Below are positions 48,712-52,702 of a stretch of 64,000 bases of DNA, in pieces. Source of the DNA: a virus; IMG/VR virus record IMGVR_UViG_3300046542_000332, positions 1 through 64,000 of that record; one strand, written 5' to 3'. The position numbers were made by a program, and so were the translations under genes. Position 1 is the first letter of the stretch. Each line of letters opens with the position of its first letter. The notes under the pieces are model-generated. The model searched no databases and was not told the origin of the DNA. It saw only the letters and a program-made list of their open reading frames with translations.

Positions 48712-48756
48712 GCCATCCCTTAAAACGCAAAAAGGGCCGAATTACCGGCCCTTGAC

Positions 48757-48798
48757 ACCTTAACGCTCGATTTGTTGGCGCTTACCGCCCGCTTTGCG
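48757..48798 (-). promoter_or_regulatory. Late promoter (CGCAAAGC ... TAAGGT) directly upstream of pacB, initiating inside a terminator hairpin (48729-48753)
   Basis: GCAAA-30-YANNNT consensus. Confidence 0.5.
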
Positions 48799-49471
48799 CG
48801 CCTTCCAGGGTGCAAACGTCCCACGGCCCGCCCTGGTCCTTGCTCAGCTTTCCGCGTGTGGCGGCCGCATACCCCGACTCACGCCAAGGCCTATTGGTGA
48901 GCACCATGCCGTTGCCCGGATCGGTCATATGGGCGCACGCCATGTAGAAACACGCATCAGGGATGTCGTGGGCTTCCTCCATCAGCCAGCAAACGTGCTC
49001 ACCGTAGAAGCCGGCCAGCGCCTCGGGCATTCTCGCGTCGGCACAGAGGAACCGGATTTTCGCGCCCATGGACTGGCGCCTCAGGTGGATCTGGTGAGCG
49101 TCAAGGCTGATATAGGCGCGCAACCAGCTATGGGAGCCCTCGACCATCCAAGTCAGCAAGCGCACGTATTGCTGCTTACGTGCACGGCCGCCTCCATGAG
49201 GAATGACCACCAGGGTTTGGGATTCGGGGCGACACAGCAGGCGCCAGATCGCGATAGGCGCCATCGGGCTGATGCCATCCCATCCATGCAGGTCGATGTC
49301 GGTGGCGATGGACACACGGCAGCCAGGGAGCGAGGCAAGGCAGTAGACGTGGGCGAGTGCTGGCGTTACCTCCATGCCGAAGACATCAGCGGCAAACGCG
49401 CACAGGTCGTTGGCGTAACGCTCGATGAACGCTGGCCACCGCGCATCCTCATAGAGCGGTGTCAGGCTCAT
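48782..49471 (-). CDS. Truncated PacB paralogue (ATPase domain only, Walker A lost)
   Basis: Colinear similarity to about the first 235 residues of the adjacent PacB; GHGTGKT replaced by DIDLHG. Confidence 0.8.
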   Translation of the reverse strand: MSLTPLYEDARWPAFIERYANDLCAFAADVFGMEVTPALAHVYCLASLPGCRVSIATDIDLHGWDGISPMAPIAIWRLLCRPESQTLVVIPHGGGRARKQQYVRLLTWMVEGSHSWLRAYISLDAHQIHLRRQSMGAKIRFLCADARMPEALAGFYGEHVCWLMEEAHDIPDACFYMACAHMTDPGNGMVLTNRPWRESGYAAATRGKLSKDQGGPWDVCTLEGAQSGR

Positions 49472-50058
49472 CGGGACGCCTCCAGCAACTTGGCGCGCTC
49501 CAGCTCGGAAAAGATCAGCGCCACCGCCTTGGTCAGCGCCTCAGCTGGCGGGCACACTTTGATTTTCGACTTGAACGGCCAGAAGCTGGTGTAGCGCATC
49601 GGGTACACACCGCCCGCCTGCATCGCGTAGCACGCCGCTGCACGCGCCAGCTCGCCGGCCTGGTACTGCTCCAGGTCGGTGGCCAGCGTATAGCCCTCTT
49701 CCTCGCGCTGGCGCTTGTGCTCATTGAGCGCCGCCATCACTTCCGGGCTCACCCCCGGAACGTTCGCATGCAGCGGCATGGCCGGCTCATAGCCCAAGGC
49801 TCGACGCTTTGGCCAGCTCGGCGACTCGGGACCGGTCGGGCGCTGTAGGACGATGCCCACCGCCTTGCCGCCGCGACGGTTCACCCACGCCAGCGGCGGC
49901 TCGCCACGGTCGCCAAACGGAAACGCCACGCTCTTCCACACCGCATAGGCCGCTTGTGTGTGGTCGTTGACGTACTCGGGGCCGACCTGCTCCAGGTCCG
50001 TGATACCGGCCTGGCGCGCGGCATACTCAAAATCAGCCCGGTTCAAGAAGAGCGACAT
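49468..50058 (-). CDS. Conserved phage protein
   Basis: EHKRQREEEGY...GELARAAACYA...WPF...LTKAVALIFSELER family motif. Confidence 0.7.
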   Translation of the reverse strand: MSLFLNRADFEYAARQAGITDLEQVGPEYVNDHTQAAYAVWKSVAFPFGDRGEPPLAWVNRRGGKAVGIVLQRPTGPESPSWPKRRALGYEPAMPLHANVPGVSPEVMAALNEHKRQREEEGYTLATDLEQYQAGELARAAACYAMQAGGVYPMRYTSFWPFKSKIKVCPPAEALTKAVALIFSELERAKLLEASR

Positions 50059-50712: not shown

Positions 50713-51333
50713 TCAATCCCCGGCCTGGGTGGTGCGATGTTTGATCATCAAGTCCGCGTACTCCCAGCGGCGAATAACATGCTGCTCCAGCTCTTGCTCA
50801 GTGGGATGCTTCCCCAAAGGAGGGATAGGCGCATGCAGGGCGAAGTCGTCGCGCAGGTCGCTCAGGTACTGCGCATCGCCCGTCGACTTGAGCGACACAC
50901 CTTGAGTGCTGACCAGCTGAGCAGTGGTTGTCTTGAGTGATTCACGAAAGGCCTTACGTTGCTCATGGAGCGGCTGGTGCTCAGGGGCTGGTGCGCACTC
51001 ACGCGGCAAGTCCAAGGCCGCACGCGCCACGGCACGCTCGGCCGCTTGACGCTCGGCGCGGACCTGGCCAACGGCGGTATTCAATGGCGTTCTGAGAAAG
51101 CCGTCAACATAGGAGCGCAGCAGCTGGGGGGTTACCGGCGCACCCGCACGGCCGCGCTCAATCGGCAGCCAGCGAGTACCACCGGGCACCTGAACGTGGA
51201 AAAACTGTCCAGCCCCCGAATCGCGCACCCGCAGGCCGCTTTCCACCAGGTATGCACGGAATGCCGGGATCTGCTCCGCACTCACCAGGCCGGTATCATT
51301 AACAATGGTCGTTGTAGCCGCTACGTTCTGCAT
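50713..51333 (-). CDS. Hypothetical protein
   Basis: AGGAG RBS; C-terminal LRDDFA...YADLMI motif. Confidence 0.65.
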   Translation of the reverse strand: MQNVAATTTIVNDTGLVSAEQIPAFRAYLVESGLRVRDSGAGQFFHVQVPGGTRWLPIERGRAGAPVTPQLLRSYVDGFLRTPLNTAVGQVRAERQAAERAVARAALDLPRECAPAPEHQPLHEQRKAFRESLKTTTAQLVSTQGVSLKSTGDAQYLSDLRDDFALHAPIPPLGKHPTEQELEQHVIRRWEYADLMIKHRTTQAGD

Positions 51334-51338
51334 TGTTA

Positions 51339-51620
51339 CTACTCCTGTGACTTAGCCTTGAATGGCGTTAAGTTTTCTCGCCTGCCTTGGCGTAATGTCG
51401 CCCGCTTCTCTGCCTTCAACGGCAGCGGACGAACCCATATTTGTCCGGTTTTGAACTGGTACAGCTCCCACAGGCCGATCTTCATCGGTACAGAGCCGTC
51501 TTCGTAGGTCTGCCAGGCGCGACGGCTGACATGGATCAGCGCGGCGCTGGCCCGCTGACTCAGGCCGGTGGTAGAGCGCGATTGCTTCACCTGGTCCGCT
51601 GTAGGGCTGCAAGGCTTCAA
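51339..51620 (-). CDS. XRE/KorC-like HTH regulator
   Basis: PTADQVKQSRSTTGLSQRASAALIHVSRRAWQTYEDG...GLWELY. Confidence 0.7.
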   Translation of the reverse strand: MKPCSPTADQVKQSRSTTGLSQRASAALIHVSRRAWQTYEDGSVPMKIGLWELYQFKTGQIWVRPLPLKAEKRATLRQGRRENLTPFKAKSQE

Positions 51621-52702
51621 TTCACGATCCCTATCTTGGCCAGCTCTTCGGCCCGACCGGCCATGGCTGCGCGGTTGGCCTCGGTGTTCGCCTGGGCCTT
51701 AGCCAGGATTTCGTCCAGCTGCTCGTCGCTGACGGCCAATGTCACAGCTACGGCCGGCTCTACGTTCATGTTGAACAGCTTCGCCAGGGAGTCGCGGTAG
51801 CCTTTCTGACTGGCCACCTTGAGTTCGGTCCCGTCCTTGCCTTCCTTCACGCCTTCAAACAGCGTCAGGGCGGCTGGTGACAGGTTGCTGGTGTCCTTGA
51901 ACAGCGCCCGGCCTTCGCCTTCACCGTCGCACTCAGGGCAATCGTAATTGGGTGGCTTGCGGCCGTCGTAGCCAATGCCCCCCAGCTCATCAAACTCGCC
52001 AATGGTCTTGCTCTCGGCCTCGGCGGCGGCTTTATCGGCCTCGTACTGCTGGCGGCGGCGCTCCATTTCACTCGGGCGCAAGTGAAACTTGTGGTCGATG
52101 CCGTAGCAGTAGCGGCAGCACCGACGCACGTACTCGACCAGCTCACGCGGATCGGCAAACGACGCCGCGTGATAGGTGGCAATGAGCTGGTTTTGAACGT
52201 CGGCCGTGCGTGCAAACAGCTCGACCTGGCGCGCCAGGGTATAGGGGTGGTTCTTAACCTTACTTAGCAGTCGACTGGCAGCCGCTGAGGCCACGTTGTC
52301 GTTCTTGCAGGTAAAGCCCGCATCCCGGTAGGACTGGCTCGCGTTGTAGGTCACTAACCACAGGTCGACAAACTTCGCCTGGCGAGCGTCCAACCCTTGG
52401 AAAGCCGCCATTTCCATGGCTTTGCGCTCTTTCAGGCTGAGCTTTACCGGGTTCTTTATCGCGGTCGTGCCCACCTTGGGCTTGGTGCCCTTAGTCGCCG
52501 GCTTTGCAGCCTTTGCCCCTGGCTTCGCCGCCGCTTTAACCGGCTTTTTGGCTTCCGTGGTGGCCGGCTTTTTGCTGCTTTCCACCTTGTTAGCCTTAAC
52601 TCCACGCGGTTTAGCAGGTTTGCGAGGGCGCGCAGTAGCCACGGACGGGGATAAATCATCCCTCGACACGGCAGGTTTATCAGTCTCTGGCTTGCGCGGC
52701 AT
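51617..52702 (-). CDS. pacA: Terminase small subunit PacA
   Basis: RQAKFVD...NASQSYRDAG...AASRLL; RRCCRYCYG and CPECDGEG zinc motifs; GVKEGKDG. Confidence 0.85.
   Translation of the reverse strand: MPRKPETDKPAVSRDDLSPSVATARPRKPAKPRGVKANKVESSKKPATTEAKKPVKAAAKPGAKAAKPATKGTKPKVGTTAIKNPVKLSLKERKAMEMAAFQGLDARQAKFVDLWLVTYNASQSYRDAGFTCKNDNVASAAASRLLSKVKNHPYTLARQVELFARTADVQNQLIATYHAASFADPRELVEYVRRCCRYCYGIDHKFHLRPSEMERRRQQYEADKAAAEAESKTIGEFDELGGIGYDGRKPPNYDCPECDGEGEGRALFKDTSNLSPAALTLFEGVKEGKDGTELKVASQKGYRDSLAKLFNMNVEPAVAVTLAVSDEQLDEILAKAQANTEANRAAMAGRAEELAKIGIVN

Follow-up and report, generated by a model that had tools for sequence, protein, structure and literature searches.

The window, the 64,000-nucleotide stretch of DNA that was analysed, is part of an 84.7-kb virus record with a P1-like organisation, the source being a Pseudomonas phage-plasmid. 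Its packaging (pac) genes form a string on the minus strand, in which PacA is followed by a 93-aa ORF, then by ORFs for proteins of 206, 150, 196 and 229 aa and, after a 70-nt spacer, by pacB (Table 1). PacB of the window has an intact Walker A motif (GHGTGKT), Walker B motif (ADEA) and nuclease domain, and it is 35% identical to the PacB of an E. coli D6-type element. The subject of this analysis is the 229-aa ORF, which the original prediction had described as an ATPase-dead, nuclease-less terminase paralogue lying directly upstream of pacB.

Pfam searches returned no match for the 229-aa protein, PacB or their neighbours, with PacA as the sole exception. The gene directly upstream of the paralogue encodes the 196-aa protein p196, and a p196 homologue was present in all relatives, including those that lack the paralogue. 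p196 itself had no Pfam match, and an Atlas search for it returned just unnamed phage clusters below 0.9. Its C-terminal ~85 aa matched the C-terminal ends of eight PHROG families without assigned function, which vary widely in length, from 186 to 685 positions; the match suggests that this part may be a mobile small phage domain.

Table 1. Positions of the features of the pac gene string in the window and of single-domain PacB copies in other loci.
Feature	Position	Strand	Basis or remark
PacA-type small terminase, first gene of the string	51617..52702	-	Pfam Terminase_2 E 2e-12; phrog_51 E 4e-23
206-aa protein	50713..51333	-	ORF; same gene-order position as the 426–431-aa proteins of sister elements
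196-aa upstream partner gene (p196)	49468..50058	-	ORF; product of unassigned function
GGAGG Shine-Dalgarno box, 7 nt 5' of the paralogue start codon	49479..49483	-	Read from sequence
ATGA start/stop overlap of the paralogue with p196 (translational coupling)	49468..49471	-	Read from sequence
229-aa pseudo-ATPase paralogue of the PacB/TerL ATPase domain	48782..49471	-	ORF; BLASTP to PacB; phrog_5902
Conserved box GT(T)A[AGC][AG]GTG, directly 5' of the hairpin	48756..48764	-	Best-conserved columns of the spacer alignment
GC-rich hairpin (9 pairs) plus T-run, terminator-like, pacB leader	48722..48753	-	Between paralogue and pacB
PacB-type large terminase, 521 aa	47146..48711	-	phrog_2 terminase large subunit E 3e-29; phrog_5902 E 5e-70
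Dead PacB copy of E. coli pE2863-2, 364 aa, WP_000201931.1	L019:7001-8095		Annotated hypothetical protein
426–431-aa nuclease-copy proteins	L001:2173-3468, L004:4192-5472, L007:4133-5425, L008:4173-5459, L009:4178-5473
239-aa nuclease-domain copy, directly 3' of pacB	L012:8557-9276		45% identity

Homology to PacB and loss of the catalytic motifs

BLASTP aligned the 229-aa protein with the adjacent PacB at 33% identity (E 1e-36), colinear with PacB residues 15–237, and all the peptide pairs listed in the original prediction were present in this alignment. Both proteins match phrog_5902 (E 2e-17 for the 229-aa protein). In addition, a tblastn search with the 229-aa protein found the annotated pacB or terminase genes of D6, P1, RCS47 and Xanthomonas Rb1. 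The protein is homologous to a bona fide TerL ATPase domain by these comparisons.

The catalytic motifs were compared in a joint alignment of the short family with 17 PacBs. At the Walker A position, the GHGTGKT of PacB is replaced by DIDLHGWDG and no G.G.GK[ST] motif is found; GK[ST] occurs in none of the 19 aligned short-family members. At Walker B, the WMADEA of PacB corresponds to WLMEEA, so that the hhhhDE pattern is missing. The position of the Walker B Asp is an invariant Glu across the short family and is followed by E, D, N, A or G, and the PacB-type DE is absent from all 19 members. The adenine-binding Q motif (T.QQ) and the C motif (SQPTR), which are kept in all PacBs, are missing or variable in the short family, and the conserved PacB segment TAPK...REG is also gone from the 229-aa protein. 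Furthermore, the protein stops at about PacB residue 237, some 35 residues short of the nuclease domain (start ~270), and lacks both the RNase H-like nuclease domain and the lid/linker. Colinearity and motif losses together bear out the description of an ATPase-dead, nuclease-less PacB paralogue, including its replaced Walker A, the change of the Walker B DE to EE and an end near the ATPase/nuclease boundary. Since neither a nucleotide-binding nor a nuclease motif remains, the paralogue would be unable to bind or hydrolyse ATP, to translocate DNA or to cut it, and we infer from these motifs that it acts by binding only.

An AF2 model of the 229-aa protein, built with 15 sequences, had a pLDDT of 72.5 and a pTM of 0.75. 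The best Foldseek matches to this model in the PDB were the TerL ATPase domains of T4 gp17, P74-26 and Sf6, with TM scores of 0.44–0.57 and E values of 6e-4 to 3e-3. The 229-aa protein is predicted, with moderate confidence, to keep the ASCE/TerL-type ATPase fold.

The similarity to PacB is unevenly distributed along the protein. The short family and PacB share 57% of their residues in the N-terminal helices (residues 9–35), 12% in the P-loop segment and 19–38% elsewhere, whereas the P-loop is the most conserved segment (97%) within PacB. The N-terminal segment is also the best kept among the short subfamilies (58%), and it retains the motif of the PacB N-terminal helical arm, D.RWPAF..RYA...FA..V.G. 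Therefore, selection keeps the fold and the N-terminal arm, with the nucleotide site discarded. The N-terminal helices could be kept for folding, however, and not as an interface. Gene conversion or co-evolution of the copy with its own PacB was also considered and rejected: identity between copy and PacB from the same locus equalled that between loci, with no sign of gene conversion or pairwise co-adaptation.

Maintenance, origin and loss of the paralogue

The short start/stop overlap between the paralogue and the p196 gene is a conserved property of the locus. An overlap of 4 nt is kept in seven related loci and one of 8 nt is found in L010, in agreement with the translational coupling to the upstream gene that had been proposed for the window. 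A word-indexed protein search found 14 homologues of 228–240 aa with 40–95% identity, all of them without Walker A. The same gene occupies the same place, between the p196 homologue and pacB, in 11 independent elements besides the window. Cultivable carriers of the gene include pKF715C of P. putida KF715 and a plasmid of P. fluorescens DR133. When related loci were drawn from virus, genome and plasmid collections, several subfamilies were recovered, down to 29% identity, and across this range more than 30 divergent homologues had an intact ORF whose length stayed constant.

Nei–Gojobori estimates gave a dN/dS of 0.19–0.31 for the paralogue in the window's subfamily and 0.11–0.26 in a second subfamily (Fisher p ≤ 3e-8), with dS up to 0.74. 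For the same pairs, pacB had a dN/dS of 0.04–0.09 at similar dS, and neighbouring accessory genes ranged from 0.14 to 0.42. The paralogue is under purifying selection and is not decaying. The original prediction held that the gene is maintained and named frameshifted or neutrally evolving homologues as grounds for giving it up; the homologues are intact and evolve non-neutrally. That the paralogue is a relic of a partial duplication, without function and simply yet to decay, is highly improbable. Its dispensability in two relatives and a constraint more relaxed than that on pacB would fit such a leftover, but dN/dS values of 0.11–0.31 at this divergence, the constant-length ORFs of dozens of homologues, the conserved coupling and Shine-Dalgarno box and the region-specific conservation pattern all argue against it. 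The reading as a pseudogene or relic was rejected on dN/dS and ORF integrity.

Between the paralogue and pacB, the original prediction had placed a terminator hairpin and a separate late promoter, from which earlier expression of the paralogue was proposed. The terminator-like hairpin, a 9-bp GC-rich stem with a T-run behind it, is indeed present at 48753–48732 on the minus strand. GC-rich hairpins lie 15–25 nt 5' of the pacB start in 14 of 14 related loci, with differing stem sequences at a fixed position; the T-run that follows the stem is missing in L010, L002 and L012. The RNAalifold consensus of the 14 spacers was weak (−0.9 kcal/mol), since MAFFT does not align hairpins correctly when their register differs, and the hairpins are visible sequence by sequence. 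Two relatives without the paralogue (L014 and L017) carry the hairpin ahead of pacB as well; therefore, it is part of the pacB leader, where it may terminate, attenuate or stabilise transcripts. The box directly 5' of the hairpin occurs as GTA[AGC][AG]GTG in all relatives, with or without the paralogue, and is possibly a −10-like or protein-binding element. When this box was sought as a shared late promoter, no second occurrence was found within the window, and a sigma-70 consensus scan of the 70-nt spacer found no promoter. The separate late promoter was thus not confirmed by the scan. The proposal of earlier expression also lost its footing, as it relied on a hairpin that belongs to the pacB leader and is uninformative on the timing of the paralogue.

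Two relatives that are 96–97% complete by CheckV, and whose PacB is 87% and 97% identical to that of the window, have no paralogue anywhere in the record; PacA of the paralogue-lacking relatives is 64–80% identical. The paralogue is dispensable. Where it is missing (L014 and L017), the p196 gene runs directly into the conserved pacB leader.

A short repeat, GCGCAARG...R stop, was observed at the 3' ends of both the p196 gene and the paralogue (window 49471–49500 and 48782–48800, minus strand; L017:6120-6150). The arrangement of the paralogue-less relatives would fit a clean deletion between such repeats.

The short proteins group as a single clade (100/100) in a maximum-likelihood tree; the stem of this clade measures 1.3 changes per site and lies within the Pseudomonas PacBs, and the internal branches of the short family are ~10 times longer than those of PacB. 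A single clade on a long stem within the Pseudomonas PacBs points to one old partial duplication of pacB, followed by divergence and at least two losses, although the exact nesting may reflect long branches. By the same topology, the short family arose once, in the ancestor of a Pseudomonas P1-like phage-plasmid group.

Set against the window's own PacB, a P1/D6-type pacase B, the paralogue shares the homology of the ATPase domain, the predicted fold, the N-terminal arm motif and phrog_5902. It differs in being 229 instead of 521 aa long, in evolving ~10 times faster, in being dispensable, and in lacking the Q motif, Walker A, the Walker B Asp, the C motif, the lid, the linker and the nuclease domain.

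Single-domain PacB copies in other lineages

A profile of the family was compared with 1.84 billion representative proteins and gave 744 matches, ~54 of which were 180–310 aa long and without Walker A. In a FastTree phylogeny, these ~54 representatives fell into at least three groups, each beside a different PacB lineage, although their separation into clades could reflect long branches. Each group has its own way of Walker A and Walker B degeneration.

One of the groups comprises E. coli and Salmonella D6/P1-type plasmids. The copy of E. coli pE2863-2 is 37.6% identical to its own PacB and 18% identical to the window's copy. Like the latter, it consists of the ATPase domain without the nuclease domain and overlaps the stop codon of its upstream gene, and its Walker A (PHGIGRP) and Walker B (VDSA) are degenerate. 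Unlike the window's copy, it keeps the Q motif and the linker, carries an extra C-terminal domain of ~100 aa, belongs to a separate clade and lies in a different operon. This operon (L019:4264-8095) is ~5 kb from pacAB and beside phd-doc; the dead copy is its last gene and is accompanied by dut and a gene for a DUF2829 protein, DUF2829 being the family of the anti-Thoeris protein Tad2. For the third group (P0058/P0074 type), a search based on P0058 returned 48 loci with full-length terminases only, some of them with inteins, and a search based on P0074 returned none.

Copies of the other TerL domain were found in sister elements. In five Pseudomonas sister elements, a 426–431-aa protein encoded between pacA and pacB holds a copy of the PacB nuclease domain (30–37% identity), and a 239-aa nuclease-domain copy occurs in a further locus (Table 1). 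The first catalytic Asp is replaced in the nuclease copies, with VDVA changed to VRVG or VVVA. The window's 206-aa protein was matched to the 426–431-aa proteins by tblastn, with the match confined to the C-terminal ~45 aa, and it is without the nuclease-like middle. By eye, the N-terminal ~100 aa of the 206-aa protein also resemble those of the longer proteins in the alignment. The window's lineage may either have lost the nuclease insert or never have gained it.

Possible roles of the paralogue

The best explanation, to which we assign a probability of roughly 0.5, is that the paralogue is a non-catalytic mimic of the N-terminal arm and ATPase surface of PacB, with an accessory, conflict-type role. 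The PacB-like N-terminal helices are the best kept part of the protein and the P-loop is the worst kept, so the paralogue is read as a mimic of PacB that binds without catalysis. Because the gene is optional and fast-evolving, and has separate-clade counterparts near other P1/D6 PacB lineages, it is read as an accessory 'conflict' gene (phage–host or phage–phage) and not as a core packaging subunit. The degenerate nuclease copies in the gene string of the sister elements were also counted towards a conflict role. Dispensability fits a role in conflict and fits equally well a mild, condition-dependent role in packaging.

A possible course of events starts with the partial duplication of pacB, which would have yielded a pseudoenzyme with the TerL ATPase fold and the N-terminal arm. 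The paralogue is probably made together with PacA and p196 from the pac gene string. It would then occupy a site meant for the N-terminal arm or ATPase surface of PacB, whether on PacA, on the PacB ring, on the portal or on a foreign protein directed against PacB, and by occupying this site would modulate or shield packaging.

A regulator of the phage's own packaging is an unlikely alternative role. The paralogue would then be a dead subunit that binds PacA or joins the PacB ring and restrains or times pac cleavage and motor assembly, for example in protection of the plasmid prophage or of early replicating DNA. The location inside the string from pacA to pacB, the translational coupling and the kept N-terminal arm of PacB speak for this role. 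A precedent by analogy may be phage lambda, where the large subunit uses its N-terminus to bind the small one. The gene was, however, cleanly lost from relatives with 87–97% identical PacB and 64–80% identical PacA, it evolves ~10 times faster than PacB without tracking it, and the enterobacterial counterpart lies ~5 kb from pacAB in a different operon. The original prediction had suggested a subunit that times packaging; an essential timer of this kind is unlikely, as the gene is missing from close relatives whose PacB is 97% identical.

The original prediction had also raised a terminase mimic that titrates terminase-sensing defences such as the Avs proteins. What SeAvs3 and EcAvs2 read is the active site of the terminase in its ATP-loaded state, and this includes a bridging ATP on the terminase gamma-phosphate (PMC13601566). 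The TerL ATPase domain alone activates EcAvs2, both EcAvs2 and Upx sense the ATPase domain, and Upx binds an unfolded ATPase core independently of catalysis (PMC13601566); a sensor of the Upx kind is therefore a conceivable target of the paralogue. T4 vs.8, a stand-alone TerL-ATPase-like protein of unknown role with Walker A and Walker B, activates EcAvs2 and is toxic on co-expression (PMC13601566). Like the window's paralogue, vs.8 is encoded apart from the terminase of its phage, is homologous to the ATPase domain of that terminase and lacks the nuclease domain; its Walker A and B are intact, whereas those of the paralogue are lost, and the two are related solely at the level of the TerL superfamily. 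Simple titration of Avs is poorly supported against this background (PMC13601566). A terminase look-alike would be expected either to activate the sensor or, if it has no nucleotide site, to be a poor ligand; therefore, simple titration is left without a mechanism.

An immune decoy or shield in a wider sense appears doubtful as well. Here the dead ATPase copy, or the dead nuclease copy in the sister elements, would bind Avs1–3, Upx or other sensors without activating them, or block their oligomerisation, so that PacB is spared. Optional presence, fast evolution and separate clades in several lineages are typical of conflict genes, sister elements carry dead stand-alone versions of both TerL domains, and the E. 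coli D6-type equivalent sits in an accessory operon with dut and the DUF2829 gene, beside phd-doc and away from pacAB. That EcAvs2 and Upx respond to the ATPase domain alone adds to these points (PMC13601566). Conversely, the paralogue has no nucleotide site for SeAvs3 or EcAvs2 to read, and the motif-intact vs.8 triggers EcAvs2 and does not block it (PMC13601566). Because Avs is activated by the binding itself, a ligand that titrates it would require some additional device. Moreover, the known anti-Avs proteins, ORF55 and ORF83, are not terminase mimics but a ligase and a DprA-like protein, and no account of a dead terminase paralogue or of a terminase mimic turned up in our literature searches. 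Databases annotate members of the family as 'hypothetical protein'.

Quite improbable is a weapon or shield against rival phages or satellites, in which the paralogue poisons the terminase of co-resident phage-plasmids or soaks up TerL-binding inhibitors of rivals. Such a role would account for the presence or absence of the gene, and for its rapid diversification, among elements that otherwise resemble one another, and there is a satellite precedent: Gpi of the satellite PLE reportedly inhibits the TerL of its helper ICP1 by direct binding. SaPI Ppi and PICI Rpp affect packaging through binding to TerS. Non-enzymatic binding that modulates the packaging motor may be a mode common to these three proteins and the paralogue; they are satellite-encoded and not terminases, whereas the window's gene is itself paralogous to a terminase and belongs to the pac operon of the phage. 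Against this role, we know of no satellite or inhibitor for these Pseudomonas elements, and a poison subunit would hit the phage's own PacB unless specificity had evolved, of which no same-locus signature was seen.

Few phage proteins are as conserved as the large terminases, which several bacterial immune sensors recognise. The dead motor-domain copies in several P1/D6 lineages, together with the degenerate nuclease copies of sister elements, point to an undescribed layer of packaging control or of terminase-centred conflict. A more general proposal, which we regard as speculative and rather unlikely, is that P1-type phage-plasmids have repeatedly split off dead single-domain terminase copies, of the ATPase alone or, in sister elements, of the nuclease alone, as mimics that blunt Avs/Upx sensors or the TerL inhibitors of rivals. 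If true, this would be the first counter-defence by mimicry of the sensed viral protein itself. A paralogue that acts as a mimic would explain how phages protect a target that is unable to mutate, and one that modulates packaging would give a well-studied motor a new, pseudo-ATPase subunit.

An intein-related origin of the paralogue was considered and rejected, as the paralogue is colinear with PacB across the P-loop region and far beyond and only 33% identical to it. Insertions with the hallmarks of inteins do occur in PacBs of the group. The PacBs of two close relatives, L005:7757-10051 and L017:6197-8509, carry an insertion of ~243 aa inside the P-loop (GHG in front of the insertion, which starts with C and ends with HN, and TGKT behind it), and a related plasmid record annotates a Hint-domain homing endonuclease at this site. 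More distant TerLs of 654–659 aa (L030–L034 and L042–L043) have the same intein-like appearance.
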